The translations under genes were made by a program, and so were the position numbers. From an uncultured Planctomycetales bacterium (lineage in GTDB: Bacteria; Omnitrophota; Gorgyraeia; Gygaellales; Profunditerraquicolaceae): a stretch of 64,000 bases of DNA. Below are positions 3,304 through 20,385 of the stretch, piece by piece; the stretch's first letter is position 1; every line of letters begins with the position of its first letter. The stretch lies in assembly GCA_964456925.1 (NCBI GenBank), contig CAYWCX010000001.1, positions 10,800 to 74,799 of the forward strand. Direction: 5' to 3'. The notes below the pieces were generated by a model. The model saw only the letters and a list, made by a program, of their open reading frames with translations, was not told the origin of the DNA and searched no databases.

Positions 3304-3687
3304 TTATTTCTTCTCTTTTTTTTCCTGGCATTTTACGCAAAGAGAGGCTTGGGGAAGGGCCTTAAGTCTGGTCTTGGAGATGGACGCCTTACATTGTTCA
3401 CAGATACCGTAGGTGCCGTCCTCTATTTTTTTCAGGGCGTCGTCTAAAACATAAAGCAACTCCCGTTCGTTGGAAGCCAGACCCAGGGAAAACTCCCGGT
3501 CGTAATTGTCGGTGGCGACATCCGCCATATGGTAGGCATAACCCGAAATGTCCCCCGAGGCCTCCTTCTGGGATTTCTTCAGGACATCCTCGGAGAGGCT
3601 TTTAATCTCATCAAGGATATCCTCTTTTTTCTTGAGGATAATCTTTTTGAATTCCGCCAGCTCTTTTTTGTTGAATTTCTTTTTCAA
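3304..3687 (-). CDS. DksA/TraR-family C4 zinc-finger regulator (comparable to B. subtilis YlyA)
   Basis: 127 aa with an N-terminal coiled coil and C-terminal CEQC...CVKC. Sits between ileS and lspA as in Firmicutes. Confidence 0.75.
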   Translation of the reverse strand: MKKKFNKKELAEFKKIILKKKEDILDEIKSLSEDVLKKSQKEASGDISGYAYHMADVATDNYDREFSLGLASNERELLYVLDDALKKIEDGTYGICEQCKASISKTRLKALPQASLCVKCQEKKEKK

Positions 3688-3688
3688 T

Positions 3689-6493
3689 TTATTTGCCTCC
3701 TATAGCTGTCAGACACTTTTCACAGATAAGAGGGTGCGCATTGTTAACCCCGACGGTGGTGGAATAATTCCAGCAGCGCACGCACTTGGCACCTTCGGCC
3801 TTGGCGACCTTAATCCTGATACCCTCTTGCGATACGTCATCTTTGCTCACCTCTACCTGCGAAACCTTAAAGATTTCACAGAGGTCGTCTTTAAGACTGT
3901 TTAAGAATGTATAACGTTCTGGGTTGTTTGTCAATAGATTTATTCCGGCATCAAAGGAACTCCCGATTAAACCGGTGGAGCGCTGCTCTTCCAGGGACTT
4001 CGCCACTTCGGGGATTAACTCTATGATTGGTTTTAATTCCGTATCGATATCCTCCTGCCGGTAAAGCGGGTTTGCCTTCGGCCAATCCAGGAGATGGACG
4101 CTGGTTATGTTACGGCCGTCCTTATCTTTAGGCATACACTGCCAGATTTCTTCAGCGGTAAATACCAGGACAGGAGCCATCATCCTTACTATCGCATTTA
4201 ATATTTCATAGATGCAGGTCTGGGCAGCGCGCCGCGGCAGGGAACCGGCGGCAGCGGTATATAACCTCCCCTTTACCATATCTAAATAATACATCGATAA
4301 CTCAATATTGCAAAAATCATATATCGCTTTATACACCTTGTAAAACTCGAAGGTATTGCTGCCGTCGCTGCCATAGGCACTCTCCACCGCCCCCAACACC
4401 TCCTGCAGTTTCCAGAGGATCCATTTGTCTATCTTTCTTAAGTCCTTATAACCTGCCTTATTGACTGCGGGGTCAAAATCATAAAGATTGCTCAGGATGA
4501 ACCTTGCGGTATTGCGGATTTTTCTATATGCCTCGGATAAACGGGCTAACATTTCTTTGGAGATGCGGATGTCCTCATTGTAATCGCTGGAGGCTACCCA
4601 GAGCCGCACGATATCCGCGCCGTACTCTTTAATGATTTCCTGCGGTGAGATAACATTACCGAGGGACTTGGACATCTTCCTTCCCTCGGCATCCACTACG
4701 TGGCCGTGGGTAAGGACGCTCTTAAAAGGCGGTCTGCCGTCAATACACATTGCCGGGATAAGCGAAGACTGGAACCATCCGCGGTGCTGATCCGAACCTT
4801 CGAGATAGAGGTCGGCAGGATAAGACAGTTCCTTCCTCTTCTTCAATACTGCCTGGCTGCTCACCCCGGAATCAAACCAGACATCCAGTATATCCGCGCC
4901 CTTGGTAAAACTTTTTCCCTTGCAATGCGGGCAGCTAAATCCCTTGGGCAAGAAATCTGTTACTTCGCGGGTAAACCAACAGTCTGAGCCTTCCTTAGCC
5001 GCTAATGCGGCAAAATTATCAATCACCGCCGGCTCCAGAAACTCTTCTTTACATCCGCTGCAGACCAGCGCCGGAATAGGAACGCCCCAGTAGCGCTGCC
5101 TTGATAAGCACCAGTCCGGCCTCAATTCCACCATCGCCGAGATTCTATCCCTGCCTACCGCCGGAATCCATTCAATATCGTTCTTGATGACATCAAGCAG
5201 CCGCTCGCGCAAGGTAACGCCGCTGTTTTTCTCGCGATAATCAATAGCCAAAAACCACTGGTTGGTAGCCCTGAAGATAATCGGGGTTTTGCAGCGCCAG
5301 CAGTGCGGATAGGAATGCCAGCATTTTTCGGCGAAAAGCAGGGCTTTAAGTTTCTGTAGTTTCTCGATGATAACTTCATTGGCGTCATAGACGTTCAGGT
5401 CCCTGAACTCTCCTGCCGAGGCATCGAAATTGCCTTTTGAATCCACCGGCATCACGACTTCAAGTTTATATTTTGATCCGGTAAGGTAATCTTCGGCGCC
5501 GTGGCCGGGAGCGGTATGGACCAGGCCGCTGCCCTCTTCTGAAGAAATATAATCAGCCAGCACTACCCTGCCCTGGCGCAGGCCAAAAGGGTGGTCATAG
5601 ATTAACCCCTCGAGTTCTTTTCCCTTGAACTGGCGGATAACCTCATATTTTTCTATCCCACTTTCGGCCAAAACCCCCCTCCTGACATTAGCAATCACAA
5701 GGTTGCCATGGGGTGTCTTAATAAAAGAATAGAGGAAATCCGGATGCACTGCTACCGCAACATTGGCAATCAGGGTCCAGGGAGTAGTAGTCCAGATTAC
5801 CAGGTAACTGTCTTCCGGAAAGTCCCTGTTTTGCCGCAGTTTAAACTTTACCAGGACAGACGGTGAAACATGCTCTTCGTATTCCACCTCCGCCTCGGCA
5901 AGCGCGGTCTCGCATTTATAGCACCAGTTTACCGGCTTTAAGCCGCGGTAGACGTAGCCCTTTTTCACCAACTCCGAAAAAGAGCGCACAATTGCCTCCT
6001 CGTAGTCGTGGCTCATCGTCAGGTAGGAGTTATCCCAATCCCCGAAGACGCCGAGGCGCTTGAATTCCTCCTTTTGAATCCCGACATATTTTAAGGCGTA
6101 TTGATAGGCCTTCTTACGGAACTCTACCTGTGTAATCTGGTATTTATCCATCTTTAGTTCTTTAAAAAGCTGGTGTTCCACCGGCAGGCCGTGGCAGTCC
6201 CATCCCGGCAGATACGGAGCGTCACAGCCCCGCATCGTCTTATATTTTACGATAATGTCCTTTAAGGTTTTATTCAGGGCGTGCCCGATATGGATGTTGC
6301 CGTTGGCATAAGGCGGGCCGTCATGCAGCACGTATTTCCTGCGGCCCCTGCCCTTTTGGCAAATCTTGCCGTATATGCCGGATTCCTCCCAGGACTCTAA
6401 GAACGCAACCTCGCGCCGGGGCAGGTCCGCTTTCATCGGAAATGCGGTGCGGGGAAGGTTCAGTGTATTTTTATAGTCGGCGTTACCTGACAT
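3689..6493 (-). CDS. ileS: isoleucyl-tRNA synthetase, type 1
   Basis: Contains the HIGH motif ([15 protein letters not shown]), KMSKS, and a C-terminal zinc-binding CVRCWN...CEKC. The track ORF is extended by 26 codons. The likely start is [22 protein letters not shown] at 6493, which overlaps the mtnP stop by 11 nt. Confidence 0.95.
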
Positions 6494-7343
6494 ATTTACC
6501 AATAATGATATCGAGGTCCTTCCTGACGCGCCGGGGGATATATTTTTTCTCGGTGACAATGGCGTGCTCAAGGGCCCGGCCGCAGTTACAGGTCCTCTCC
6601 TGCGGCAGGAGTTTAATGACCGTAGAAACTATTTTTTTGGAATTAGCGACGTTTGCCTTAAGGTTCTGGATTACCATATCAATGGTGACGCTGTCGTGGG
6701 AAGGATACCAGCAATCATAGTCGGTAACCGCAGCCAGCGTTACATAGCACATCTCGGCCTCGCGCGCTAATTTTGCCTCGGCAAAATTAGTCATCCCGAC
6801 AACATCCATACCCCAGTTGCGGTATAATTTTGATTCCGCGATAGTGGAAAAGGCCGGGCCTTCCATATTAATATAAGTACCTCCGTTATGCACCCGGCTG
6901 GTTACGTTTTTGGCGGCCCGGTATAAAAACCCCCGCAGTTCCTCGCATACCGGATGCGAGAATTCAATGTGCGCGACAATGCCTTCTTCAAAAAAGCTCA
7001 TGTCCCGGGCATAATTGGTGCGGTCGACAAACTGGTCCACTGCTACAAAATCAAGCGGCTTGATTTCTTCCTTAAGGCTGCCGCAGGCAGTAACGGAAAT
7101 GATGCGCTCCACCCCTAATTTTTTCATGGCATAGATATTGGCGCGGTAATTGATGTGGCTGGGCGGGATGCGATGCCCCACATCATGGCGCGGCACAAAC
7201 ACTACTTTCTTGCCCTCCAGTTCTCCGATAACGAATTTTCCCGAGGGTCGACCAAAGGGGGTCGCAAGACTCACCATATCCGCAACCTTCATCCCTTCGA
7301 TTTTGTATAAACCGCTTCCGCCGATAATACCGATACGACCCAT
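6483..7343 (-). CDS. mtnP: S-methyl-5'-thioadenosine phosphorylase (purine nucleoside phosphorylase family)
   Basis: [14 protein letters not shown]-terminus and PNP/MTAP-family length and motifs. Confidence 0.85.
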
Positions 7344-7347
7344 CTTT

Positions 7348-8178
7348 TTAATCCCTCCTCGCCAGTAACTCGGCGCGCTTCAGTGCTGCCCGGGCAGCGT
7401 CGCCCCAGGAATCAGACTGTCTTAATATCGCCATCGCCGCTTCAGTGGTGCCGCCCTTAGAGGTAACCTGACCGCGCAATTCCGCAGGTGAACTCTTGGT
7501 CTTTTTAAGGAGGCTTAAACTGGTATTGGCGGTATTAACCGCTAAAAACATCGCATCCTCGTGATTAAAGCCGACATTTTCGGCGGCCTGCGCCAGGCGC
7601 TTAATCATATCTCGCCGGGCGTGCTCCGGGATATTATTAGGGTCAAGGGAATTCTGCTCGAGGAAATAAAAGATGTACGCCGGCCCGCTTCCCGAAATAG
7701 CGGTAGCGGCATTCATCATCTTTTCATCTATCGTGCGGACAACACCCAAATAATAGAATAACTCCCGGGCTAACTCCAGGTCCTCGTCACTTGCAAAGCT
7801 ACCCTTGCATAAACAGGTTACAGACTCCGCAATCTTAACCCCGATATTCGGCATCGCCCGCACCACCCTTACCTTACCCAGCATCTTCTCCAGATGAGCA
7901 GTGCTGATGCCGGCAGCAATAGAAATGACTAATTTATCCTTGACGTAATTGCGGATGACTTTTAAAACCCCGTCAATGTCCTGCGGCTTTACCGCCAATA
8001 ACAATACCTCGGATTTCTCTGCCAGGCTGATAACATCACCGGCAACATTAATGCCTTTAACAGCGGCAGTGCGGTGTTTATCCTTATCAAAGACGGTAAT
8101 CTGATAATAAGATGCGAGCTGCCCTGCCATGGCTTGCCCCATATTCCCAAAACCGATAATCCCTAATCTTTCCTGCAT
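7348..8178 (-). CDS. proC: pyrroline-5-carboxylate reductase
   Basis: IGFGNMGQAMAGQL Rossmann motif and the GSGPAY motif. Confidence 0.9.
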   Translation of the reverse strand: MQERLGIIGFGNMGQAMAGQLASYYQITVFDKDKHRTAAVKGINVAGDVISLAEKSEVLLLAVKPQDIDGVLKVIRNYVKDKLVISIAAGISTAHLEKMLGKVRVVRAMPNIGVKIAESVTCLCKGSFASDEDLELARELFYYLGVVRTIDEKMMNAATAISGSGPAYIFYFLEQNSLDPNNIPEHARRDMIKRLAQAAENVGFNHEDAMFLAVNTANTSLSLLKKTKSSPAELRGQVTSKGGTTEAAMAILRQSDSWGDAARAALKRAELLARRD

Positions 8179-8868
8179 CTAAAACCCTCCGAATATTGCC
8201 CTGCCTAAACGGATGATGTCCGCGCCTTCTTCGATTGCTACCTCAAAATCATCGGTCATCCCCATCGAAAGCAGGGTTAAGCGGTTATTAACGGAAGGAT
8301 TAATTTTCTCCTTCAGTTCTCTTAACATCCTGAAATATGGCCGGGGTTGCTCGGCATATTCTCCAACAGGCGCAATAGTCATTAAACCTTTTATATTTAT
8401 ATTTTTTAGTTTGACAGCCTCCTCAACCATTGCCGCCAGCTCTTCCGGATTCAAGCCGGATTTGGTGGGTTCGGGGGAAGTCTTGACCTCAATCAAAATA
8501 TCCTGAACCTTATTTACCCTGGCAGCCTGTTTGTCAATTTCCGCGGCGAGGCGGATGCTGTCCACGGAATGAACCAAATCAAAAATCCTTACCGCCTCTT
8601 TTACTTTATTAGTCTGAAGATGGCCGACCATATGCCAGCGGATTCGCATATCGCCTGGCGCTAATCGCTTATCGTTATACTTTATAAGCGCTTCCTGCAC
8701 CCTGTTTTCGCCGATATCCGTTATGCCGGCCTGAATTGCTTCGTACACCTCCTGCGCTGTCCTGCCTTTACTTACTGCCACCATGGTAATTGTTGCGGGG
8801 TCGCGCTTTATCCTGGCACAGGCTGCGGTAATACGGCCTTTCAAAGAAGATAAATTATCCCTAATCAT
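8179..8868 (-). CDS. yggS: YggS/YlmE-family PLP-binding protein (PLP homeostasis)
   Basis: VAVSKGRTAQEV (PLP lysine) and HMVGHLQTNKVK motifs. The ylmE position downstream of the fts genes matches Firmicutes. Confidence 0.9.
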   Translation of the reverse strand: MIRDNLSSLKGRITAACARIKRDPATITMVAVSKGRTAQEVYEAIQAGITDIGENRVQEALIKYNDKRLAPGDMRIRWHMVGHLQTNKVKEAVRIFDLVHSVDSIRLAAEIDKQAARVNKVQDILIEVKTSPEPTKSGLNPEELAAMVEEAVKLKNINIKGLMTIAPVGEYAEQPRPYFRMLRELKEKINPSVNNRLTLLSMGMTDDFEVAIEEGADIIRLGRAIFGGF

Positions 8869-8884
8869 GGCTATAAACTAATAT

Positions 8885-8912
8885 ATTATACCTAATAAAA
8901 CGCAACGGTCAA
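8885..8912 (-). promoter_or_regulatory. sigma-70-like promoter for yggS-proC: TTGACC, 16-nt spacer, TATAAT
   Basis: Minus-strand reading is TTGACCgttgcgttttattaggTATAAT. The -10 lies about 17 nt upstream of the yggS ATG at 8868. Confidence 0.55.
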
Positions 8913-8926
8913 TACAATACCAATAC

Positions 8927-9225
8927 GGAGACGTTTTCCTCCCCAAAGCGGACAGTGTCTTGAGATAATCAGCGAAGGAAAGCTTTAGTTAAATTTTACG
9001 GTTTTTGCTGGAGCGCACATTAAGATTTTTATGGCAGGAGTGCACAAGGGATTACGAGCCGCTGGAATACGCTTGCCTTACGATAGCCTACTGATGGAAG
9101 CGGCGAGTAAACCGTAGTGCACGGCGTAAAAATCCAGTGCGCGAAGCAAAACCGCAAAATTTAGCTGGAATCTCTATTCGTTCATTATTTGAGACACTGT
9201 CCCGATTGACGAGGAAAACGTCTCT
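8927..9225. repeat. Palindromic repeat element copy C1: ~180-bp rod-forming core at 8988-9168, nested inside extra outer inverted repeats of about 48 bp (8927-8975 and 9181-9225)
   Basis: The core shares 85-90% identity with C2 (34530-34701) over GCTGGAGCGCACATTAGGATTTTTACGG...AAGGGATTACG...GTAAACCGTAGCGCACGGCGTAAAAATCCAGTGC. The 5' and 3' halves are reverse complements. Outer repeat: GGAGACGTTTTCCTC...GGACAGTGTCT on the left versus AGACACTGTCC...GAGGAAAACGTCTC on the right. Confidence 0.85.
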
Positions 9226-9232
9226 ATAAGTA

Positions 9233-10489
9233 CTAGAAGTATTCCTGGTATACTTCCCTGACTTTATGGAATGCCTTAACCAGGACATTACGGGGAGGCT
9301 GGGGAGCGTATAAGGTGTGCGCCTGTTCGCGGTGCAGGGACTGGCATATCAAGCCAAGACTGGTCAGGTAAGTGAGATAGCGCTGACCGGAAAGGGAATC
9401 GTAACGGTTGGCGAGACCGGCAATCTCGGGATTAAGGAGACGGCCGAGTTTTATCGAAATACCCAGATTGCTCTCCAGGGATTCCAGGAACCCCTCCAGC
9501 ATCACCGTCCTGCCGACGCAGATAAAATTGGCAACCCTCTGGGTAGGCACCATCTTATCCATTTTTTCCTTGATGGTCTGGCAGATACGTTTTGCTTCGC
9601 GGGTAGTAAGCTCTACTACCGCTTTTTCCTTGATCGGCTTGTAAATGTCGCGTTTCTTAACCAGGATTTCCTTATCCTCGGTTAACCGGTTATGCTCGCC
9701 CACAAAACCGTGCTGGCGTTTAATCTCCTCTGCCAGTTCAAACGGTATTTTGAGCTCGTCCGACAATCTCGCGGTTATGTCATCCCCGCCGATGGTAAGG
9801 ATTTCTACGTCGCAGAACCGGCCGTTTCGGAAAACGAGCATTTCGGTAATATCGCTGCCGATGTCACAGACTATCTCGACCTCTTCGGGGGGGGCGCTGC
9901 CGAATACCGCCGCGCTGGTAGCCAGGCCCGAGAAGAAAAAATCCCTGATTTCGTAACCGGCTTGATTGACGGCACGGGCAAAACTTTGTATACCCGCCAG
10001 TTTCGCAAAGATAAGGTAAAGGTCAACCTCGAGGCGGTGGCTGTAGAGCCCCGCCGGATTTATAATGTTGGTTTTGGAATCAATGGCGTAGCTGTAAGGA
10101 ACGCAATGGATAATCTCTTCTTCAAGGCTCGAACCGAGAATGCGCGCCTGTTCGTTAACCTTATAGATATCAGAGGGGGTGATGACCTTATTGCCGCGTT
10201 CGGCAAGCGGAATTATGGCGCGGCTGTGCCGGCTGGAAATATCCTGACCCGAGATGTTGACCGAAAGGTATTTTATATTTATGCCGCAGGCGGCTTTGAG
10301 GCTGGTCAGGACATTGCCGATAGCCCCTACCAGCTCAATCAGGTCAACCACCGTGCCCTTTTTAACCCCCCGGGACTCCGCGCTCTCCAGGAATATATCG
10401 CTTATGCGCCCCTTTTTAATCCGGGCAACCGCGGCGGCAATCTTGCTGGAGCCGATGTCCAGCGCACAGAGGTAATTACTGTTTAGCAT
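9233..10489 (-). CDS. ftsA: cell division protein FtsA
   Basis: LDIGSSKI actin-fold N-terminus and a C-terminal amphipathic helix (LVKAFHKVREVYQEYF). Follows ftsQ in the division cluster. Confidence 0.9.
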   Translation of the reverse strand: MLNSNYLCALDIGSSKIAAAVARIKKGRISDIFLESAESRGVKKGTVVDLIELVGAIGNVLTSLKAACGINIKYLSVNISGQDISSRHSRAIIPLAERGNKVITPSDIYKVNEQARILGSSLEEEIIHCVPYSYAIDSKTNIINPAGLYSHRLEVDLYLIFAKLAGIQSFARAVNQAGYEIRDFFFSGLATSAAVFGSAPPEEVEIVCDIGSDITEMLVFRNGRFCDVEILTIGGDDITARLSDELKIPFELAEEIKRQHGFVGEHNRLTEDKEILVKKRDIYKPIKEKAVVELTTREAKRICQTIKEKMDKMVPTQRVANFICVGRTVMLEGFLESLESNLGISIKLGRLLNPEIAGLANRYDSLSGQRYLTYLTSLGLICQSLHREQAHTLYAPQPPRNVLVKAFHKVREVYQEYF

Positions 10490-11222
10490 CTTCCTTGAAT
10501 TTTATTACGGGGTCCTTAAACCTTAAGTCAAAGTATTTAATCCTGCTCAGTTCGTTCCTGGTCTGCCGCATAAGATTCTCTAAAAGCTCAACCCGCTCCC
10601 TGATATTATCCTGGCCGATCCTTACCTCCAGGCCGTTATCGGTAACAAAAAAGGCATTAACGGGGTTGGCGACATTGACGACCTTAATATTAAGGTAAGG
10701 GGCGAGCGGCCTTTTCTTAACCTCCCTGACGATGCTGACCGCCAGGCCGAGTTCCTGCACGTTGTATTTTTTACCTATCTTGGGGCCGAAGATTTTAGTC
10801 TCCAGGCCCAGGATAACCGGCAGGGCATTTTCTTGAGGCTCCCCCTCGGCATCCAGAAGCACCAATTCTTCATCCACGCAGAAATAACGGTATAGCTTGA
10901 CGTACGCCTGGGGGGTGCGTTTGACAAAATCCACCAATAAACGGTTGGGCAGAATCCTGATGAGTCTTACCTTCTTATAGGCGGGGTGGAATTGCCAGAT
11001 GCGCCCGGATTCTTTTTTCAAATCAATATTAAAGATGCCCTGCCCCTTGAAATAGGAAAAGTTCTCCTTCTCCCCGCCGCCCCTTACCGCTATCTCTTTA
11101 ATCTTAAAATAATCCAGGTTCTTTAAACCCCGAAACAACGCGGCTACCGTCAGGTAAATTACAACCAGAAACACTAACGCCAGGATTAATTTAAAGGGTA
11201 TTCTAAGCCGCGGTTTTTTCAT
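10476..11222 (-). CDS. ftsQ: cell division protein FtsQ/DivIB
   Basis: N-terminal TM segment plus POTRA-like domain, at the expected position between ddl and ftsA. Confidence 0.8.
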   Translation of the reverse strand: MKKPRLRIPFKLILALVFLVVIYLTVAALFRGLKNLDYFKIKEIAVRGGGEKENFSYFKGQGIFNIDLKKESGRIWQFHPAYKKVRLIRILPNRLLVDFVKRTPQAYVKLYRYFCVDEELVLLDAEGEPQENALPVILGLETKIFGPKIGKKYNVQELGLAVSIVREVKKRPLAPYLNIKVVNVANPVNAFFVTDNGLEVRIGQDNIRERVELLENLMRQTRNELSRIKYFDLRFKDPVIKFKEDAKQ

Positions 11223-12186
11223 ATGCCAATTCCAGTAGTTTAATGCAAAGTTCGCCGAACCCTATGCCGCTGTTGCGGGCTGCCTTGGGTAAAAGACTGG
11301 TGGCGGTAAAGCCCGGGATGGTATTAACCTCCAGAACAAAAGGTATATTATCATTATTCAGGATGATGTCAACCCGGCAACAGCCAAAGCAGCCCAGGAG
11401 CCGGTGTGCCGCCAGGCCTGCCTCTTGAATCTTGAGGCCGACCTGCGGTTCCAGTTCGGCAGGGACAACATACTCTGTGATGCCGGACTGGTACTTGGCA
11501 TCATAGTCAAAGAACCTGTGTTTGGGCACAATCTCGATTACCGGAAGAGCCCTGTCATCCAAAATGCCCACCGTCATCTCTCTGCCCGGAATATACTGTT
11601 CAACCAGCGTCCTCTCGTCAAATGTAAAGGCCTTTTCCAGTGCCTGGCCCAACTCCTCGATTTTATCGATAATGGATAGACCTATGCTGGAGCCGTTGGT
11701 TGCGGGTTTAACTACGAGGGGCGGGGAAAAACGCTGCCCTAAACTCCACCCGGCAAGATAAGAAGATTTTTCTACTACTTCATAAGGCGGCACTGCCAGA
11801 CCCTTCTCTTCGAAAATCCGGCGCGAGGCGATTTTATCCATCGCCAGCCTGCTGGCAAGGACGCCTGAGCCGCTATAGGGCAGCCGTAACCGCTCAAGGA
11901 TTTCCTGGATCTGGCCGTCTTCTCCGAAACGGCCGTGCAGCGCCAGAAACACGCAGTCTAAATGCTGGGATTTCAAAAGCGCGATGTTCTGCTCGACATT
12001 GTCGCTCTGGATATCTATGGCTGTGACATTAAGCCCTAAATCCTTAAGCGCCTCATAGACTGCCATCCCGGATTTCAGGGAAATCTCCCTCTCGGTAGAC
12101 GGCCCTCCCATCAATACGCCGACCCTGCCGAATTTCTTTTTGCTCGCCAGGGCGCGCTTGTGTCCTTTTGCCTTTAATTCTTCCAT
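11203..12186 (-). CDS. ddl: D-alanine--D-alanine ligase
   Basis: MGGPSTEREISLKSG N-terminal motif and an ATP-grasp fold. Confidence 0.9.
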   Translation of the reverse strand: MEELKAKGHKRALASKKKFGRVGVLMGGPSTEREISLKSGMAVYEALKDLGLNVTAIDIQSDNVEQNIALLKSQHLDCVFLALHGRFGEDGQIQEILERLRLPYSGSGVLASRLAMDKIASRRIFEEKGLAVPPYEVVEKSSYLAGWSLGQRFSPPLVVKPATNGSSIGLSIIDKIEELGQALEKAFTFDERTLVEQYIPGREMTVGILDDRALPVIEIVPKHRFFDYDAKYQSGITEYVVPAELEPQVGLKIQEAGLAAHRLLGCFGCCRVDIILNNDNIPFVLEVNTIPGFTATSLLPKAARNSGIGFGELCIKLLELAYEKTAA

Positions 12187-13091
12187 ATCCTGATTTCAGG
12201 CTCTAATGCGATTTTAAATTTATTTTTTACCTTTTTTCTTAAGGCCTGCATTAAAACCAGGACATCGCGGCTGCTTGCGTCCCGGCGGTTGACGATAAAA
12301 TTGGCGTGCCTGCTAGAAACTTCGGCGCCGCCGATTTTTTTGCCTTTGAGCCCCGCCAATTCAATCAACCTTCCCGCAGAATCTCCGGCAGGATTGCGGA
12401 AGACGCAGCCGGCTGAAGGCAAGCTTAAGTCCTGGCTCTGCCTGCGGCGGCAGAGGCGCTCCTTGATAACGGCCTTAACCTTATCTTTATTCCTGCGCCT
12501 TAAATTAAAACGGGCGCTTAAGATTATATATTTGTCTAACCCCGATTTGCGGTAACTGAAATTTATCTTTCCGGAAACGAGGTTTTTAATATTGCCATTA
12601 TAGTCCATAACCCGTACCCTGTCTATTAAATCTGCGATGCTCTGTCCCTGGCGGGACTGGCCGGCATTCATAACCAGCGCTCCTCCCACCGTTCCGGGGA
12701 TACCCGCCAGGAATTCGTATCCTCCGAGATCCCTGCGCACCGCTGCGCTTATAAACCCGGCCAACTTTACCCCTGCGCCTGCTTCAACGGACCTGCCTTG
12801 GAAAATCAATTTTTTAAAATAAGGCGCGCTTAATCTGATAACCAGGGCATTTACGCCCTTATCGTCCACCAGAAGATTGCTCCCCGCGCCCAGGATTAAA
12901 ACCCGCACCTTTTCTCTCTTGGCTAAAGAGAGCAGTAACCGCAGGTCTTCTTCATCGGCAGGCTCGGCAAAATAGCGTGCCCTGCCTCCGATCTTAAAGG
13001 TGACACGGTCCTTGAGGGGCTCAAGCAACCTGAACTTGCCTTTTAATCCGCTCTGCCAGTTCATCGCAACTCTTGACGATATCGCCGGCAC
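12174..13091 (-). CDS. murB: UDP-N-acetylenolpyruvoylglucosamine reductase
   Basis: TFKIGGRARYFAEP FAD-binding motif. The true start is probably the internal MNWQSG near 13064; either start overlaps the murC 3' end. Confidence 0.85.
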   Translation of the reverse strand: MPAISSRVAMNWQSGLKGKFRLLEPLKDRVTFKIGGRARYFAEPADEEDLRLLLSLAKREKVRVLILGAGSNLLVDDKGVNALVIRLSAPYFKKLIFQGRSVEAGAGVKLAGFISAAVRRDLGGYEFLAGIPGTVGGALVMNAGQSRQGQSIADLIDRVRVMDYNGNIKNLVSGKINFSYRKSGLDKYIILSARFNLRRRNKDKVKAVIKERLCRRRQSQDLSLPSAGCVFRNPAGDSAGRLIELAGLKGKKIGGAEVSSRHANFIVNRRDASSRDVLVLMQALRKKVKNKFKIALEPEIRIWKN

Positions 13092-14397
13092 CCAGAATAA
13101 TCACGAGGTCACCGGGCTTAATGATATTTAAGATATGGCCGACAATCTCTTCTTTAGCCAAAAAATGCACTGCTTTATCCGGGCTAGATTGTTTTATCTT
13201 CGCGCCTAAGCCCTTTGCGTCTATCCCCGCAATAGGCTTTTCGCCTGCCGGATAAATATCGGTGAGGACCAGGTAATCCGCAGAGTCAAAACTCCCGGCG
13301 AATTTATCCCAAAGCAGTTTAGTGCGGGTGTAACGGTGCGGCTGGAATACCGCGATTATCCTGTCGGGTTTTAACTCCCGCACCGCGGCAAGCGTCGCCC
13401 GGATTTCCGTGGGATGATGCGCATAATCATCGATGAGCAGGTAATCGGGACTGCTGAATTTTACTTCCAGCCTCCTGCGGGAACCCTGGTAACCGCCGAG
13501 GGCCTTCTTGATTAGCCCCGGCTCCAGCCCTAATTCCAAACCCAGGCCTATCACTGCTAGGGAGTTGGAAATGTTATGCAGTCCGCCGAGGGCAAGTTCG
13601 AACCTTTCTACGAATTTACCCTGCTTAAAACAGTCGAATTGCGAACTCAAGGCACGGAGAGCGATGTTAGCGGGATAAATATCCGCGCCTTCTTCTAAGC
13701 CGAAGAAAATATGCCTGCCTTCATAGCCGGCCAGGAGACCTTTCAGCGCCGGGTCGTCGCTGCAAGCAAAGACGCAACCGCCTTTTTTAGTCTGGTAGAT
13801 GAATTTGCGGAAGGCCTCCGCCTCATTTTTGAAACTGCGGTAATAATCCAGGTGTTCGTAATCGATATTGGTAATAATAGAATAATCGGGATGGTAATAA
13901 AGGAATGAGCCGTCGGATTCATCGGCTTCGGCAACAAAGAATTTTCCCTCGCCTAAAGAGGCGTTGCTGTCAATGTTCCTGAATATCCCGCCTACCGCAA
14001 TGGTGGGTTTTAAACCCGCCTCCAGCAAGAGACAGGAAACCAGTGATGAGGTAGTGGTCTTGCCGTGGCTGCCGGTAACGGTAATCACGGTTTTGTCCCG
14101 CATCAGCTCTGCCAGGGCCTCTGCGCGCTTTTTAAGCGGGATATTGCTCTTCTTAGCCTCTCTTATTTCAGGATTATCCTCTTTAATCGCCGAGGAGTAA
14201 ACGACTACATCGGCGCCTTTAATATTGGCCGGGCTATGGCCGAAGAATATCTTCGCTCCCAAACGCTGGAGTTCTGCAGTAACCCTGCTTTCTTTAAGGT
14301 CTGAGCCGCTTACATTAAAACCCCGGCGCAGGAGCAGATTGGCAATCCCGCTCATCCCGATACCGCCGATGCCGATTAAATGATAATGTTTAGCCAT
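13021..14397 (-). CDS. murC: UDP-N-acetylmuramate--L-alanine ligase
   Basis: GIGGIGMSGIA and GSHGKTTT Mur-ligase motifs. Confidence 0.92.
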   Translation of the reverse strand: MAKHYHLIGIGGIGMSGIANLLLRRGFNVSGSDLKESRVTAELQRLGAKIFFGHSPANIKGADVVVYSSAIKEDNPEIREAKKSNIPLKKRAEALAELMRDKTVITVTGSHGKTTTSSLVSCLLLEAGLKPTIAVGGIFRNIDSNASLGEGKFFVAEADESDGSFLYYHPDYSIITNIDYEHLDYYRSFKNEAEAFRKFIYQTKKGGCVFACSDDPALKGLLAGYEGRHIFFGLEEGADIYPANIALRALSSQFDCFKQGKFVERFELALGGLHNISNSLAVIGLGLELGLEPGLIKKALGGYQGSRRRLEVKFSSPDYLLIDDYAHHPTEIRATLAAVRELKPDRIIAVFQPHRYTRTKLLWDKFAGSFDSADYLVLTDIYPAGEKPIAGIDAKGLGAKIKQSSPDKAVHFLAKEEIVGHILNIIKPGDLVIILGAGDIVKSCDELAERIKRQVQVA

Positions 14398-14404
14398 TAA
14401 AAAA

Positions 14405-15517
14405 TTAGATTAATTCCAGTATTGCCTCGCGAAGCCGCGCTGCAGCGCCGCAAGCGTTCAGTCCCTGATAGTTACGGCGCATCCTCTCCAGCTCGCTGCT
14501 ATTATTTAAAATCCCCCCTAAAATACTGCTGCCTTCTCCGCGCGCGAATGCCGCATCATCAATAATAAAGGCGCATCCCCTTTCGCTTAATACCCAGGCG
14601 TTTGCCGCCTGGTGACTGTAGGCATACGGATAAGGCACGAGGAGCGCCGGGATCTTAAATAACATCAACTCCGCAATGGTAGTCGCTCCTGCCCGGGATA
14701 TTATGAGATCCGCGGCACTGTAGGCATATTGCATGGCATTAGAAAAAGCATAGACCCTCGCCTCCACTGCGCTCTGCCGGTATTGCTCCCTGACGGCTCC
14801 ATAATCCTTATTCCCGCTTAGGTGTATCACCTGGATGCGATGCTTCCGCGCCAAGGAAGGGACTATCTTTAAAAATCCGCTGTTAAGACTATGGCTGCCC
14901 TGGCTGCCTCCGCTCACCAGAAGCGTAAACTTATCCTGGCTTAATGCGAAATAATCCCGTGCCTTTACCTTATCTACCGGTGCCATTTCCCTGCGCAGGG
15001 GGTTACCGGTAATAATTATTTTTTTTTCGTAACATTTAAGGTAATCGGCGGTGGCTCCAAAGGAAAGCGCAATGCGGTTGCTGAACAATGCAAGTAATCT
15101 GTTTGCCCTGCCGGGTATGACGTTCTGCTCGTGGATTAAGGTGTTCCTGCCGCCGGCGCGGGCGAGCAATATCAGGGGCACGGATGCCATACCTCCGAAA
15201 CCCACCACTACAGCAGGCCTGAATTTCAATAACGCCCAGAGTTCCTCGGCAACGCCCTTAAAAAATTTTAATATACTCATAATATTGCCTAAACCAAGAC
15301 TTAATTTAATGGGTGAAAAGGAAACATACCTTAGCGGGCATTCCAAATCTCCTATACGGTCCCTGATGCTGCCCTGCGGTAAAACCAAAAGGGTCTCAAT
15401 CTCCGGCGCACCGTCTTTGAGGCTGTCCAGGAGGCTGAGCGCCGGAAAGATGTGTCCGCCGCTGGAACCCGTCACCGCCAGTACCCTGTTTTTTCCCCGG
15501 CCGCACGATGGTCTCAT
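14405..15517 (-). CDS. murG: UDP-GlcNAc:undecaprenyl-PP-MurNAc-pentapeptide GlcNAc transferase
   Basis: VLAVTGSSGGHIFPA motif. The track ORF carries a 52-codon 5' extension. The likely start is MRPSCGRGKNRVLAV at 15517, which overlaps the ftsW stop by 4 nt. Confidence 0.88.
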   Translation of the reverse strand: MRPSCGRGKNRVLAVTGSSGGHIFPALSLLDSLKDGAPEIETLLVLPQGSIRDRIGDLECPLRYVSFSPIKLSLGLGNIMSILKFFKGVAEELWALLKFRPAVVVGFGGMASVPLILLARAGGRNTLIHEQNVIPGRANRLLALFSNRIALSFGATADYLKCYEKKIIITGNPLRREMAPVDKVKARDYFALSQDKFTLLVSGGSQGSHSLNSGFLKIVPSLARKHRIQVIHLSGNKDYGAVREQYRQSAVEARVYAFSNAMQYAYSAADLIISRAGATTIAELMLFKIPALLVPYPYAYSHQAANAWVLSERGCAFIIDDAAFARGEGSSILGGILNNSSELERMRRNYQGLNACGAAARLREAILELI

Positions 15518-16608
15518 GGGTATTCTCCGGTGCGGGCGATATTCATAAGTATCCCGACGCTGATGATATCGAAAATAAAGGATGAGCCGCCGTAACTTAT
15601 AAAAGGTAAAGGCAATCCTTTGGTAGGCAGTAAGCCGCAGGATACGCCGATATTGATGGTGGCCTTCAGGCAAATCATCAGGATGAGACCGAGGGCCAGG
15701 AAATATCCGAATTTATCCTGCGTGTTCTTGAGGATCTTCAGGCACTCCTGGATAAAAATAATAAAGAGCGTTATTACCGCAATCGTCCCAAGCAGCCCCA
15801 GTTCTTCCCCGATGATGGAAAAGATAAAATCGGTATGCGCCGCGGGCAGGTAAAAGAGCTTCTGTTTAGAATGCCCCAGCCCGGTGCCGAATATCCCGCC
15901 TGAGCCCAGGGAGATCTGGGACTGGATAATCTGAAAACCGCTACCCTTGGGGTCGGACCAGGGGTTTAAGAAAGCCAGGATGCGCATCCGGCGGTAAGGG
16001 ACACTGAAGATTAAAAAGTAGAGCGCCGGAAGGCTTAAGAGCACCAGCGAAAAAAGATAAACCATCCTCACCCCGGCAATAAAAAGCATTATTAAAACTA
16101 CGCTGCCGAGGGCGATTATCGTGCCGAGATCCGGCTGCAGCAGTATCAGCAACAATACCGCGCCCAAAACCATTATCGGCGGCAGGAATCCGCGCCAGAA
16201 ACTTCTGATGGCGCTGCCCCGGCGGGCGATAAAATCCGCGATGTACATAATGAGCGCGATATTTGCCAGTTCCGAAGGCTGGAAGCTCAGGAATTTAAAC
16301 CTGAACCAGCGCCTCGCGCCCGCCACCTCCCTTCCGATATGGGGAATAAGCACTAATACCAACAACAGCAGGGAAATCAAAAGCAGAGGCCGGCAATACC
16401 TGCGGAATCTGCGATAATCTACGCTCATGGAGAGGAATGCCAGCACTATGCCGATGAGGATAAAACTGACGTGCCGCTTCAGAAAGAAAAAACTATCCTT
16501 ATACCTCTCCCAGGCGTAGATACTTGAGGCGCTGTAGATCATCACAATGCCGATACAGACGAGCACCACGGTAACGGCAAAGAGACGGATGCGGATATTG
16601 CGTATCAT
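15514..16608 (-). CDS. ftsW: SEDS-family peptidoglycan polymerase FtsW
   Basis: Ten-TM SEDS protein sitting between murD and murG. Confidence 0.9.
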   Translation of the reverse strand: MIRNIRIRLFAVTVVLVCIGIVMIYSASSIYAWERYKDSFFFLKRHVSFILIGIVLAFLSMSVDYRRFRRYCRPLLLISLLLLVLVLIPHIGREVAGARRWFRFKFLSFQPSELANIALIMYIADFIARRGSAIRSFWRGFLPPIMVLGAVLLLILLQPDLGTIIALGSVVLIMLFIAGVRMVYLFSLVLLSLPALYFLIFSVPYRRMRILAFLNPWSDPKGSGFQIIQSQISLGSGGIFGTGLGHSKQKLFYLPAAHTDFIFSIIGEELGLLGTIAVITLFIIFIQECLKILKNTQDKFGYFLALGLILMICLKATINIGVSCGLLPTKGLPLPFISYGGSSFIFDIISVGILMNIARTGEYP

Positions 16609-16611
16609 CTT

Positions 16612-17889
16612 CTAATTATTTTTGGCAAGCCGGCGCACCGCGGCCTTAAAAAGCCTGCCCCTTTCTTCGTAATTGGCGAACATATCAAAACTTTTGCACA
16701 TCGGCGAAAAAAGCACGCATTCGCCGGGGCTGGCCCGCAAAAAGGCCAGACGAATCGCTTCTTTTAAGCTTGCGGCGCGCTGTAAGGGGATAATCCCCCT
16801 AAATGCCCGGCTGATCCTGGCGCTTGCCTCTCCGATTAGCACTGCCGCTTTTACTTTGCGGCGCACCAAATCCCGCAGCACGGCATAATCATTGCCCTTC
16901 TCCCTGCCCCCGGCAATCAGTATTGCGCGCGAGGCGATATTGTTCAAGGCCCAGGCCGTGGCATCGACAGTAGTAGATTTGGAATCATTGATAAACTCAA
17001 CGCCCCTGATGCGCGCCGCTTTTTCCATACGGTGCTCGATACCCCTGAATTTCTGGAAGACCCTGCGGATTTTATTTTGAGCGATACCCAACAGCGAACC
17101 CACTGCCATTACCGCAGCCTCGTTGGCATTGGCTTCCTTCGCGGCTGAAAAATAAACCACCCGCGACTTTGCCCGCCTCGCGGTCCTTCTTAAAGCCGCG
17201 TCATCCCGGTTGATAACCAGCGCGTCGCCTTTACCCTGCTTCATAAAGATGCACGCTTTTGCCGCCAGGTACTCTTTCATGTTACGATACCTGTCGAGGT
17301 GGTTGCGGCTGAAATTCAAAATCACCGCGACCTGCGGCTTAAAGCCCCGGATGTTTTCCAACTGAAAAGAGCTTACTTCTAAAGATACGTAATCCTGGGG
17401 CCTTAGTTTTTCCACTTCGCCGCAGAAAGGATTTCCGATATTGCCGCAGACGACTGCCTTTTTACCTGCTTCCTTTAAAATTAAGCCGATAAGGGTTGTA
17501 ACGGTAGTTTTGCCGTTAGAGCCGGTGACGGCAATAATCTTAGCCGGGCAAAGCAGCCAGCCAACCTCTATCTCGCTGATAACCGGTATGCCTGACTTCC
17601 TCGCCCATAATAAAGGTAAGGCATCAGGTGCAACTCCCGGAGAAACCACTACCAGGTCACCGCCCTTGATAAAGCCCGGGGAATGCCTGCCCAGTTCAAC
17701 CCGAATGTTTTTGGCTCTTAACTCTTTTGCCTTGACGCGCAAGGCCGGGGTATCCTGATTATCACTGACGCTGACGCAGGCCCCCAACTTGGCAAGCAGC
17801 CTGGCGCAACTTATCCCCGAACGTGCCAGGCCTACGATAGTGACTTTTTTATCCCTGAAATAATCCCTGTTTCGCATCGCAAGAATCAC
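16612..17889 (-). CDS. murD: UDP-N-acetylmuramoylalanine--D-glutamate ligase
   Basis: GSNGKTTVTT P-loop and the cluster position. Confidence 0.9.
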   Translation of the reverse strand: MILAMRNRDYFRDKKVTIVGLARSGISCARLLAKLGACVSVSDNQDTPALRVKAKELRAKNIRVELGRHSPGFIKGGDLVVVSPGVAPDALPLLWARKSGIPVISEIEVGWLLCPAKIIAVTGSNGKTTVTTLIGLILKEAGKKAVVCGNIGNPFCGEVEKLRPQDYVSLEVSSFQLENIRGFKPQVAVILNFSRNHLDRYRNMKEYLAAKACIFMKQGKGDALVINRDDAALRRTARRAKSRVVYFSAAKEANANEAAVMAVGSLLGIAQNKIRRVFQKFRGIEHRMEKAARIRGVEFINDSKSTTVDATAWALNNIASRAILIAGGREKGNDYAVLRDLVRRKVKAAVLIGEASARISRAFRGIIPLQRAASLKEAIRLAFLRASPGECVLFSPMCKSFDMFANYEERGRLFKAAVRRLAKNN

Positions 17890-17895
17890 GCCTGA

Positions 17896-18984
17896 TTATC
17901 TTATCTTGAGCGTAACTAAAGCAAGGAGCGCAAGAAGACTGGCAAGAATCCAGAAACGGGTAATGACCTTGGTCTCCGGCCAGCCCAGGAATTGAAAATG
18001 GTGGTGCAGCGGAGCAATCTTAAAGATACGCTTCCCGGTAAAACGGAATGACCCTATCTGTAGTATTACCGAAATCGCCTCCAGGACAAATATGCCTCCT
18101 ACAATCACCAGAAGCAGTTCCTTCTTGATTAACAAGGCTACCATGCCCAGCGCCCCTCCCAGGGCAAGCGAGCCGGTATCGCCCATAAAAATCGATGCCG
18201 GATAACAGTTAAACCAGAGGAACCCCAGTCCCGCGCCAAAGATACTGGCGCAGAACACGGTAAGCTCGCCGGCGCCGCGGATATAAGGTATAAGAAGGTA
18301 ATCGCTGAACTTGAAGTTTCCCGAGACGTAACTTAACACGGCGTAGGTCAACGCCACCATAATCACGCAACCGATGGCCAAGCCGTCCAGGCCGTCGGTA
18401 AGGTTGACGGCGTTCGAAGAACCGGTGATGACGATAATCACGAAAATAATATAGAATATCCCCAAATTCAGGGAGACATCCTTCAGGAAAGGCAGGTCCA
18501 GTTTGGTGCTGTTCTGGGGGTCAAAAAGAAGAAATATCCCCAAAATCAAACCCAGCACGATCTGGCTGCTGAATTTGGTGCTTGCAGTCAACCCTTTGGA
18601 GCACCTGCCGACGTGCTTCAGGTAATCGTCGGCAAAACCGGTGATGCCCAGCCACAGCGTGGTAAAAACCACCAGCATTATCTGGCGGTTGAAAATATCA
18701 GCCCAGAAAAGGGTCGATGAGATTATTGCCACCAGGATTAGAATTCCCCCCATAGTGGGGGTGTCCTGTTTCCTGCCGTGCAGCTCATAGAGCTGCTTGC
18801 TGTCCTCCTTCCTGATATTCTCCCCGATTTTTAATTTCTTAAGCGCCCTTATGATGAAGGGGCCGAGGACGAGACAGACCAGGAAACTCGTGAGGGCTGC
18901 CATCGCCGCGCGGAAGGTGATATAACGCAGGATATTGAAAAAAGAAATCAGATGATGGAGGGGATAAAATAGATAATACAACAT
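17896..18984 (-). CDS. mraY: phospho-N-acetylmuramoyl-pentapeptide transferase
   Basis: 362-aa polytopic membrane protein with MraY motifs, sitting between murF and murD. Confidence 0.9.
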   Translation of the reverse strand: MLYYLFYPLHHLISFFNILRYITFRAAMAALTSFLVCLVLGPFIIRALKKLKIGENIRKEDSKQLYELHGRKQDTPTMGGILILVAIISSTLFWADIFNRQIMLVVFTTLWLGITGFADDYLKHVGRCSKGLTASTKFSSQIVLGLILGIFLLFDPQNSTKLDLPFLKDVSLNLGIFYIIFVIIVITGSSNAVNLTDGLDGLAIGCVIMVALTYAVLSYVSGNFKFSDYLLIPYIRGAGELTVFCASIFGAGLGFLWFNCYPASIFMGDTGSLALGGALGMVALLIKKELLLVIVGGIFVLEAISVILQIGSFRFTGKRIFKIAPLHHHFQFLGWPETKVITRFWILASLLALLALVTLKIR

Positions 18985-19029
18985 AGCAAGATATTATAGC
19001 AGATAAAATACCAAAAATCCACAGACGCT

Positions 19030-20385
19030 TTAGAGAATCTCTTCCATCTTCATTGCGCGGGAACCTTTTATCAGCACGATATCGCGGCTTTGCGGGACGA
19101 CCCTTTCAAAAAGAACCTTAGCCGCTTCTTTAGTGTCTGCGCAAAGAAAGATATCCTTTGTCCGGCCGCTGCTCTGACGGGCTGCCTCTGCTGCCAGCCG
19201 GGAAAGGCGACCGACCGTAATGAAGACATCGCAAACAGCTGCGGCATCCCTGCCGGCCTGACGGTGGAAATCCTTACGGGATTTGCCGAGTTCAAGCATA
19301 TCGCCCATAATAAAAATCTTTCTTCCGGCGGCGGGAAAATCCGCCAGGGTGCGCAAGGCCTCTTTCAAGGAAAAGGGATTGGAATTATAACTGTCGTCAA
19401 AAAAACGCGCGGCGCCGCGCCTAACCAGCTTAAGCCTTCCCGGCGGGAAATCAAAACGCGCCAGCCTCGCGGCGATATCGCGATAGGTCATACCCAAAAT
19501 GCGCGCTACCGCAACGGTAATCAGACCATTATAGATGTTATGGCGTCCGAAAGTCGCTAAAAATAATTTTTCTTGGCGGTTCACCCTGAACTCCAAGCCC
19601 CCTGTGGCATACTTAATATTCGAGGCCTTGAAGTCACTATTAGCCCTACAAGCAAACCCTACCGTAAACGGACTTTTGCCCTTTGCAATGACTGAAGACC
19701 TCAGGAAATCGTCGTCTCTGTTAAGGATTGCCAGATACGGAGCAGAAAGCCTCTTGATAAGACTGTATTTCTCCCTGAATACGCCGCTTAAACTCTTGAA
19801 ATGTTCCAGATGTGAAAGCCCGATATTGGTAATAATCCCGATGTTGGGGCGATAGATATCGGCGAGATATTGGACTTCGCCGAAATGATTAGAGCCGATT
19901 TCCAGCACCGCGGCTTCGTGGCTGCGGTTTAAACCTAAAAGCGCCATCGGCAAGCCGATCTGGTTATTCCTGGTGCCTTCGTTCTTGAGCACGCGGTATT
20001 TGGCGGATAAAACCCAGGCGATCATATCCTTGGCAGTGGTCTTGCCGTTGCTGCCGGTAACCGCGATAAAAGGAAGGTCGAATCTCCTGCGGTGGTAAGC
20101 GGCAATATCGCCGAGCGCCTTTCGGGTATCGTTTACCTTGATTAAAACTGTTTTTTGGGATTTCGCCAGGCGGGGGAATCTGCGGGCGACAACACAACCT
20201 GCTCCCCTGCGGATTGCCGGAAGGATAAAATCGTGGCCGTCAAAATTGTCGCCTTTCAGGGCGATAAAAATCTCATTCTTTTTGACGCTACGGCTGTCAA
20301 GGGAGACGCCCTTAAGCGAAACGCCGCTATCCGCGCTAATTAATTTACCGCGGGTAGCCGCTAATATTTCCTTTACCTTAAACAT
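19030..20385 (-). CDS. murF: UDP-MurNAc-tripeptide--D-alanyl-D-alanine ligase
   Basis: TGSNGKTTAKD motif and the cluster position. Confidence 0.9.
   Translation of the reverse strand: MFKVKEILAATRGKLISADSGVSLKGVSLDSRSVKKNEIFIALKGDNFDGHDFILPAIRRGAGCVVARRFPRLAKSQKTVLIKVNDTRKALGDIAAYHRRRFDLPFIAVTGSNGKTTAKDMIAWVLSAKYRVLKNEGTRNNQIGLPMALLGLNRSHEAAVLEIGSNHFGEVQYLADIYRPNIGIITNIGLSHLEHFKSLSGVFREKYSLIKRLSAPYLAILNRDDDFLRSSVIAKGKSPFTVGFACRANSDFKASNIKYATGGLEFRVNRQEKLFLATFGRHNIYNGLITVAVARILGMTYRDIAARLARFDFPPGRLKLVRRGAARFFDDSYNSNPFSLKEALRTLADFPAAGRKIFIMGDMLELGKSRKDFHRQAGRDAAAVCDVFITVGRLSRLAAEAARQSSGRTKDIFLCADTKEAAKVLFERVVPQSRDIVLIKGSRAMKMEEIL

Follow-up and report, generated by a model that had tools for sequence, protein, structure and literature searches.

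A dcw cluster that ends at ftsA without ftsZ in Omnitrophota, and a dispersed hairpin repeat between ftsA and yggS

In Firmicute-type synteny the dcw cluster (of genes for division and the cell wall) leads from ftsA to ftsZ and, further downstream, to ylmD, ylmE (yggS), sepF, ylmG, ylmH, divIVA and ileS. Among palindromic repeats, the enterobacterial repetitive intergenic consensus (ERIC) and the Correia elements are both mobile and RNA-active. The repetitive extragenic palindromes (REPs, 20-40 nt with a GTAG or CGTC tag) and the bacterial interspersed mosaic elements (BIMEs) are mobilised by REP-associated tyrosine transposases (RAYTs). Both fields meet in the 64,000-nucleotide stretch analysed here (the window, whose positions are used below), in which the dcw cluster ends at ftsA and a gap with a long hairpin precedes yggS. 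The FtsA of the window has hundreds of close homologues, and the named top matches are from Candidatus Omnitrophota bacteria; the organism is a Candidatus Omnitrophota bacterium.

The locus resembles the Firmicute-type cluster in its full mraZ-to-ftsA order and in having yggS and ileS downstream in the same direction. It differs by the absence of ftsZ, sepF and divIVA, by proC and a PNP_UDP_1 phosphorylase gene placed between yggS and ileS, and by a separate promoter for yggS. Planctomycetota and Chlamydiota, which belong to the same superphylum (PVC, for Planctomycetes, Verrucomicrobia and Chlamydiae), likewise keep ftsI, ftsW, ftsQ, ftsK and the mur genes with ftsZ missing. Those phyla are however also devoid of ftsA and mostly of ftsB (PMC12283558; PMC8178401), whereas here ftsA is the terminal gene of an otherwise complete, compact cluster and well conserved across the phylum. 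As an overall reading we consider it likely that the ftsA-yggS junction was FtsZ-less ancestrally, that ftsZ has probably disappeared from the whole genome and that the hairpin is a later, unrelated repeat insertion.

In the window the order mraZ-rsmH-ftsL-ftsI-murE-murF-mraY-murD-ftsW-murG-murC-murB-ddl-ftsQ-ftsA is unbroken on the minus strand (9233-25270; Pfam assignment of every open reading frame, ORF). The last gene is ftsA (9233-10489, minus strand, 418 aa, PF14450 and PF02491). A non-coding spacer (8869-9232), identical in independent assemblies, extends from its stop codon to the start codon of yggS (8179-8868, minus strand, PF01168), which encodes a pyridoxal-phosphate-binding protein. 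A previous sequence-only reading had described a dcw cluster that stops at ftsA with no ftsZ, 364 non-coding bp with a palindrome followed by yggS-proC, and no GGGTGTG signature in the window; all of this is borne out, the palindrome being imperfect and ~297 nt long. A GGGTG[ST]G-type tubulin motif is absent from all six frames of the window, and tblastn with the FtsZ proteins of E. coli and B. subtilis gives no match in the window at E <= 1. In the gap the same search yields nothing meaningful at E <= 100, i.e. no ftsZ pseudogene or remnant. Moreover, no tubulin-family gene is found across ~84 kb of this genome (the window plus the flanking contigs L211 and L213, i.e. 20 kb flanks).

Assemblies are well known to be misjoined at long palindromes and dispersed repeats, and an assembler that collapsed or jumped the repeat could have dropped ftsZ. 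The chance of such an artefact is practically negligible: the same junction occurs in five contigs obtained independently, each from a sample or assembly of its own. Three independent assemblies agree at 100% over the whole 364 bp, and a fourth is identical over 326 bp, its contig ending inside the gap (samples ENA ERZ27245470, ENA ERZ27245614, JGI 3300025136 and JGI 3300025145). A fifth contig (JGI 3300022556) has a copy of the hairpin core described below at the same place. Adjacency of ftsA and yggS in 62 other species, many of them without the repeat, also speaks against a misjoin. The junction across 8869-9232, for which the sequence-only reading had raised misassembly, is real.

For comparison, a profile of 14 FtsA sequences was used to collect 80 loci from species-representative genomes (GTDB), and 10 further metagenome loci were added (loci and contigs are denoted by L numbers). 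The titles of most of the 80 loci name Omnitrophota or Omnitrophica; about a dozen have other labels of metagenome-assembled genomes (MAGs), e.g. uncultured Planctomycetales. The FtsA proteins of the 80 species share 52-72% identity with that of the window, and those of closer metagenome relatives up to 77%. An FtsZ match within +-10 kb of ftsA is found in none of the 90 loci (0/80 GTDB species, 0/10 others), nor anywhere in the 1.39 Mb around ftsA of the 80 species or in 0.69 Mb of contigs with the repeat, for the most part syntenic with Omnitrophota. FtsA without an adjacent FtsZ is unusual for bacteria generally, as the earlier reading held, but it is the rule in this Omnitrophota sample.

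Downstream of ftsA, yggS follows in 62 of the 80 GTDB species and lies within 700 bp in 57 of those; 8 of the 18 species without a yggS call have less than 500 bp of sequence past ftsA and are uninformative. The ftsA-yggS gap is at most 90 bp long (7-90 bp) and nearly unstructured in 29 of the 62 species, 91-700 bp in 28 and more than 700 bp in 5. Most of the 62 species continue with proC-PNP-ileS, as does the window (3689-8178, minus strand), and Pfam gene lists give ftsA-yggS-proC-PNP-ileS in relatives at 77%, 72% and 60% FtsA identity. In L005, the nearest relative found (FtsA 77% identical), the gap is 51 bp between called genes or 57 bp by tblastn boundaries and holds no repeat. It consists essentially of the promoter alone (TAA-AGGCCCATTATTG-TTGACC-N17-TATAAT...ATG). 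A sigma-70-like site (TTGAYH-N15-19-TAWAAT) is present within 90 nt upstream of yggS in 50 of the 62 species. Because 29 of the 62 gaps are 90 bp or shorter, the nearest relative has ~55 bp and none of the 80 species has ftsZ there, the ancestral junction is best read as ftsA stop codon, short spacer and yggS promoter. Judged by gene order, ftsZ is shown to have been away from this junction since before the sampled species diverged.

The gap of the window itself (8869-9232, 364 bp) contains no credible ORF. Inverted-repeat arms are located at 8928-8960/9192-9224 (85% complementary) and at 8965-9005/9148-9188, and together with a nested core repeat they make up the composite imperfect palindrome (8928-9224). 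The gap folds as a single long hairpin with a minimum free energy of -135 to -138 kcal/mol and z = -8.9 to -9.0 on either strand (about -9 for the palindrome); in the comparison with dinucleotide shuffles 0/100 equal it on either strand. The core copy C1 is a strand-asymmetric hairpin of ~175 nt (8990-9163, minus strand; 164.3 bits with the covariance model R1 described below, no match on the plus strand). Its modelled strand is that of ftsA and yggS, and the 174 nt are 76% identical to a second copy, C2. The outer arm following directly on the ftsA stop codon is a 33-nt motif (9192-9224) with its inverted partner at 8928-8960. In the metagenome contig L098 this 33-mer recurs at 97% identity, after rodA and ahead of a core repeat. 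Outside the core, the palindrome is made of a different repeat. The 297-nt object therefore nests at least two repeat families and lies past the last gene of the dcw operon, ahead of the yggS promoter. This promoter-like site (TTGACC-16 nt-TATAAT, 8885-8912, minus strand) matches 11 of 12 consensus positions and lies between palindrome and yggS start. At the 3' base of the composite hairpin a weak terminator-like site is found, with a 6-bp stem and the tail UAUUGGUAUU / TATTGGTATT; several relatives (L081, L042 and L065) have textbook terminators at the same place. Taken together, the 364-bp gap is an ordinary inter-operon spacer in which a composite hairpin has been inserted past the ftsA stop codon and ahead of the yggS promoter.

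The repeat was previously taken as a possible footprint of a rearrangement, left behind when recombination or excision took ftsZ out of the ftsA-yggS interval. It does sit where ftsZ lies in Firmicute-like synteny, and the order from yggS to ileS recalls that synteny. We nevertheless find this explanation extremely improbable and abandon it: all 80 species are without ftsZ at the junction, many of them (the 29 with short gaps) also without the repeat, as is the nearest relative found, the gap holds no remnant of ftsZ, and the repeat family is dispersed at unrelated sites (beside a tRNA gene, after rodA, between trpF and trpB). Relatives with neither ftsZ nor a repeat at the junction are the very outcome by which the earlier reading expected its rearrangement idea to be weakened. 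Since the gap of L005 is little more than the promoter and 29 of the 62 gaps lack the repeat, the hairpin is best seen as a later insertion, which by this comparison arrived after the split from the closest relatives and would be unrelated to the disappearance of ftsZ.

Other species have filled the same gap differently. The longer gaps hold assorted long hairpins, textbook bidirectional terminators or occasionally an unrelated gene. Such genes are found in few species and none is tubulin-like: a 1717-aa Ser/Thr-kinase/AAA/GAF/histidine-kinase fusion, a MORN-repeat protein, an HD/GAF protein and unknowns of 299 and 160 aa (L057 11356-16509, L016 6664-7440, L079 11291-12718, L064 5265-6164 and L058 11573-12055, respectively). 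The ftsA-yggS junction seems to be an insertion hot spot. A second, unrelated family of long-hairpin repeats (TTAGCGGGTGGCTTGGCTTGATTTCGAG...) fills the gap in L011 (11257-11475), L025 (11254-11726) and L061 (11257-11734).

Whether ftsZ moved or was lost had been left undecided by the sequence-only reading. Loss is better supported, as a trait of the whole lineage and not as an event at this locus. Pende et al. (PMC8178401) group Omnitrophica with Planctomycetes and Chlamydiae as without FtsZ (legend of their Fig. 5). Their supplementary table gives FtsZ as NA in 4 of 5 Omnitrophica genomes (Ca. Omnitrophus magneticus, GWA2_41_15, RIFOXYB12_FULL_50_7 and WOR_2 SM23_29), with FtsA present in 3 of those 4. 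Only 'Omnitrophica bacterium OLB16' has both FtsZ and FtsA, with adjacent accession numbers (PMC8178401). Rivas-Marin et al. 2016 (PMC5147048) also report FtsZ in OLB16 only and consider that the other absences possibly reflect incomplete data. In the current NCBI taxonomy, OLB16 (taxid 1617433) is Candidatus Hinthialibacteria bacterium OLB16 of the phylum Candidatus Hinthialibacterota. The sole FtsZ-positive exception is thereby removed, and among the surveyed genomes still classed as Omnitrophota FtsZ is absent in 4/4 and FtsA kept in 3/4. From these surveys and the reclassification it appears quite likely that ftsZ has been lost from the genome altogether. The negative sequence data from the window, its 20 kb flanks, the 1.39 Mb around ftsA and the 0.69 Mb of other contigs are consistent with loss, short of proof.

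Some points weigh against loss. The claim rests on two literature surveys with few, incomplete genomes (MAGs and single-cell genomes) and on partial sampling. The FtsZ queries were typed-in sequences, although in a control they are 52% identical to each other (E 2e-95). A study of 2025 (PMC12283558) calls the dcw genes 'highly conserved' in Omnitrophota and names no ftsZ loss; its supplements contain no Omnitrophota rows. Seymour et al. 2023 (PMC10066038) mention neither FtsZ nor FtsA, and literature searches for Velamenicoccus with FtsZ and for OP3 with FtsZ and FtsA returned nothing useful. The rival reading is an ftsZ relocated to another part of the chromosome; cells would then divide with a normal FtsZ ring held by FtsA, and nothing but the synteny would be unusual. 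The only well-established role of FtsA is the tethering of FtsZ, and FtsA is strongly conserved across 80 species. In addition, PMC12283558 groups Omnitrophota with FtsZ-containing phyla as to the conservation of dcw genes, PMC5147048 itself allows that absence may reflect incompleteness, and sampling away from the ftsA region amounts to only about 0.7 Mb of scattered contigs. Relocation is nonetheless unlikely in our view, given the absence of FtsZ in all four surveyed genomes that are still Omnitrophota, three of which keep FtsA, the scoring of the phylum as FtsZ-less in PMC8178401 and the lack of any FtsZ in the window, its 20 kb flanks and the 1.39 Mb and 0.69 Mb of related sequence searched here.

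Loss of ftsZ remains our preferred reading. Omnitrophica dcw clusters lacking ftsZ have been recorded before in surveys and are ordinary for the lineage. To this record we add the 80-species synteny evidence for the ancestral junction, the move of OLB16 to another phylum, which clears an ambiguity of the older surveys, the retention of a strongly conserved FtsA, and a widespread, covariation-supported hairpin family of Omnitrophota intergenic regions that is absent from Rfam.

The window FtsA contains the SHS2 (1C) insert and ends in a helix-like, amphipathic-looking C-terminal tail (...VLVKAFHKVREVYQEYF). About 100 columns are invariant in the alignment of the 14 FtsA sequences. The best solved relatives are the FtsA structures 7q6f and 7q6d; the T. 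maritima FtsA-FtsZ complex is not among the structure sequence matches to the window FtsA. The genome keeps FtsA, FtsQ, FtsL, FtsI, FtsW, FtsK, RodZ, MreBCD, PBP2, RodA and the whole Mur pathway. The elongasome and late divisome genes are therefore all present in a genome apparently without FtsZ. Division would presumably rely on septal peptidoglycan synthesis that is coordinated in the absence of an FtsZ ring, a role that membrane-bound FtsA could plausibly take. As polymers on the membrane, FtsA might bring in the FtsQLB-FtsWI synthase and switch it on with no Z-ring involved, perhaps assisted by MreB-RodZ as in Chlamydia. The conserved FtsA sets Omnitrophota apart from Planctomycetota and Chlamydiota and makes them a natural test case for FtsA function without FtsZ.

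The core of the hairpin is not confined to the ftsA-yggS gap. In ~85 kb of this genome it is present in five copies at three loci. Copy C2 (34529-34703, minus strand, R1 169.8 bits) starts 2 nt past the 3' end of tRNA-Pro(CGG) (34705-34782, minus strand; ARAGORN and Rfam). C3 (34305-34488, plus strand, R1 163.2 bits) is convergent with C2, and the two pair with each other on joint folding. The remaining two copies form a pair downstream of rodA (L213 15833-16008, plus strand, and 16090-16261, minus strand). Such convergent pairs (plus, then minus) at distances of 40-140 nt are frequent, e.g. in L098 (2274-2449 plus, 2531-2702 minus) and L091 (697-880 plus, 1017-1202 minus).

Other Omnitrophota MAGs also have related copies: L007/L012 in the ftsA-yggS gap, L059 between yggS and proC, and L089. 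The covariance model recognises a shortened copy in the ftsA-yggS gap of L008/L020. The gap is thus occupied by a related copy in at least three other lineages (L007/L012, L008/L020 and L155). Further copies were retrieved from JGI metagenomes with a search motif based on the conserved loops (GCCGTNNGCTWCGGTTTAC-N45-75-CGTAAWHCCYYG; at least 120 matches). On metagenome copies the covariance model gives 83 + 46 forward-strand matches with 50-181 bits, the reverse strand reaching ~30 bits. Altogether more than 130 core copies are present in other metagenome contigs, several of which have 2-3 copies in 10 kb, often as convergent pairs.

Copies are intergenic, or intercistronic inside operons. Operon-internal copies lie between murD and ftsW in sense orientation (L206 8337-8531) and between trpF and trpB in antisense orientation in two related genomes (L204 8763-8935 and L189 4543-4714). 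At the trpF-trpB junction of the window (around 60233-60236) the genes overlap and there is no repeat. Between co-directional genes, 33 copies are sense and 16 antisense. The TTAGCGGGTGGCTTGGCTTGATTTCGAG family often adjoins the core repeat in metagenome contigs (flanks of the copies in L113, L140, L146, L147, L155 and L091), and other recurring flanking motifs include GCTAAAAGCTCCATTCGCTCGAAAACCG. Omnitrophota intergenic regions seem to be rich in several palindromic repeat families.

The fold of the core is supported by covariation. The consensus hairpin of the six copies from which R1 was built has 46 pairs, 25 of which show compensatory changes. In an alignment of 94 rows, 92% of the cells pair versus 35-49% with slid partners, and 34 of the 46 pairs show double (compensatory) changes; 0/500 shuffles reach the observed values, with the reservation that the rows were fitted to the model and that some of the sequence conservation comes from the retrieval motif. 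Pairing and covariation extend to the termini (TAAWTTTT.../...AAAAWTTA, TA-rich ends of the form TAAWTTT...AAAWTTA). Within the pairs G-U outnumbers A-C by 224 to 73, and therefore the fold of one strand is selected.

In Rfam 15 the region 8800-9300 has no match at E <= 10. For 34200-34860 at the same cut-off the tRNA is the only significant match, three chance-level ones (E about 6-7) being far below gathering scores, and at gathering thresholds over the whole window nothing is reported for the hairpin. A 6S-RNA-like identity of the hairpin was considered and dropped, since there is no Rfam match and the element is multi-copy. A literature search found no paper on palindromic repeats of Omnitrophota, and the family is apparently undescribed so far. 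Its copies could be used to mark the phylum, and gene callers, assemblers and screens for non-coding RNAs will be misled by them.

Compared with described repeats, drawing on their generally known properties, the core resembles ERIC as a long imperfect palindrome without coding capacity that is intergenic or intercistronic, probably transcribed, and found in either orientation. It is also kept across many species of a clade, with copy number and presence at orthologous sites varying widely. This comparison is an analogy, the two being set apart by host phylum and length: the core has about 175 nt versus about 127 nt of ERIC, an unrelated sequence in another phylum, and differs by conserved internal loops and a bulge, marked strand asymmetry and frequent convergent pairs. 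With the Neisseria Correia elements and miniature inverted-repeat transposable elements (MITEs) the core shares dispersal, lack of coding capacity, inverted-repeat termini, nesting of repeat in repeat and a location near genes where it could affect transcripts. It pairs however over its whole length and not at the termini only, and shows no demonstrable target-site duplication and no parent insertion sequence or transposase. REP/BIME elements are likewise extragenic palindromes with a strand-specific hairpin, frequent inverted pairs and positions after stop codons, but the core unit is four to eight times longer than a REP and no RAYT gene is seen in the sequence examined. By analogy, its closest counterparts are the ERIC elements and the bacterial MITEs, and it is a member of no family tested.

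The core repeat family behaves like non-coding mobile repeats of the ERIC/MITE type, occurring in both orientations, varying in presence by species and carrying no gene. The many dispersed non-coding copies are a MITE trait, as are the ftsA-yggS and trpF-trpB sites that are filled in some species and empty in others. ORFs between convergent pairs (L100, L187 and L190) are unrelated to each other; the one in L100 has no Pfam match, and those in L187 and L190 were judged by inspection. Several observations do not favour a simple mobile insertion. We infer mobility from the distribution only. Inspected over their 40-nt flanks, 123 copies show no clear target-site duplication, the surrounding sequence being AT-rich and TA a palindrome in itself, and no transposase partner with the same ends occurs in ~2 Mb examined. 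The recurrent occupation of the ftsA-yggS gap could reflect site preference or a local function, not random insertion.

Such a function would be that of a structured RNA or single-stranded DNA signal instead of selfish DNA, e.g. a processed small RNA, a protein-binding element of the 3' untranslated region or a terminator/insulator that keeps the dcw operon apart from the yggS promoter. The strong covariation and the conserved unpaired motifs (a CUAAUG bulge; GCCGU..GCUACGGUUUAC / CGUAAAUCCUUGC) point in this direction, as the housekeeping proteins of the hosts are only 55-80% identical. So do the strand asymmetry (100-180 bits forward, about 30 reverse), the G-U excess of 3 to 1 over A-C, the 2:1 sense bias between co-directional genes, the occupation of the gap in four lineages and the weak terminator-like end, a stem followed by UAUUGGUAUU. 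One third of the copies are however antisense to both neighbours, copy number ranges from none to several per 10 kb between genomes, half of the species are without any structure at the junction, and no Rfam family matches, the support coming from sequence comparison. A dedicated function is therefore doubtful to us; it does not exclude mobility. If transcribed at the 3' end of the dcw mRNA, the hairpin would most likely be stabilising or terminator-like. A wider proposal combines such a strand-specific functional RNA or single-stranded DNA element of ~175 nt with a phylum-wide FtsZ-less division, in which conserved, membrane-anchored FtsA (with FtsQ/L, FtsW/I, FtsK and possibly MreB-RodZ) would by itself organise the synthesis of septal peptidoglycan as a third distinct solution within the PVC superphylum. 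We put it forward tentatively, its chances being somewhat below even.

The individual genes at both ends of the cluster, all on the minus strand, are mraZ (24833-25270), rsmH (23910-24830), ftsL (23542-23907), ftsI (21805-23529) and, next to ftsA, ftsQ (10476-11222). Downstream of yggS follow proC (7348-8178), the PNP_UDP_1 phosphorylase gene (6483-7343) and ileS (3689-6571). The longest ileS ORF (TTG start at 6571) overlaps the 3' end of the phosphorylase gene by 89 nt (6483-6571). The ileS gene calls of relatives begin farther downstream (937 aa in L213), and the true start is probably internal to the longest ORF. Several dcw clusters of Omnitrophota carry an inserted Peptidase_MA_2 gene between murG and murC (L008 5259-6047, L009 1285-2061, L010 1269-2048), which is the case neither in the window nor in the closer relative L005. 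The MAG GCA_043823435.1 (L009) has murB as two ORFs (FAD_binding_4, 3391-3822, and MurB_C, 3861-4295), probably owing to a frameshift or sequencing error.

Other content of the window is housekeeping: ligA, xerC/D, a riboflavin operon, rodZ, ftsK, pnp, an addA-like helicase gene, recJ, argS and the trp operon. An FMN (flavin mononucleotide) riboswitch (Rfam RF00050, 111.5 bits; 39533-39664, minus strand) is located upstream of ribBA (38262-39470), with ribH, ribD and ribE as further riboflavin operon genes downstream of ribBA. rodZ-ftsK lie at 43043-46049. Extension by 10 kb on each side of the window adds mreBCD-mrdA-rodA, murA, rho, prfA and others. murA and mreB-mreC-mreD-mrdA-rodA are found just outside window position 1 on the flanking contig L213; the latter block (L213 10613-15780) is located ~2.5-8 kb beyond that position, close downstream of the dcw/ileS block.

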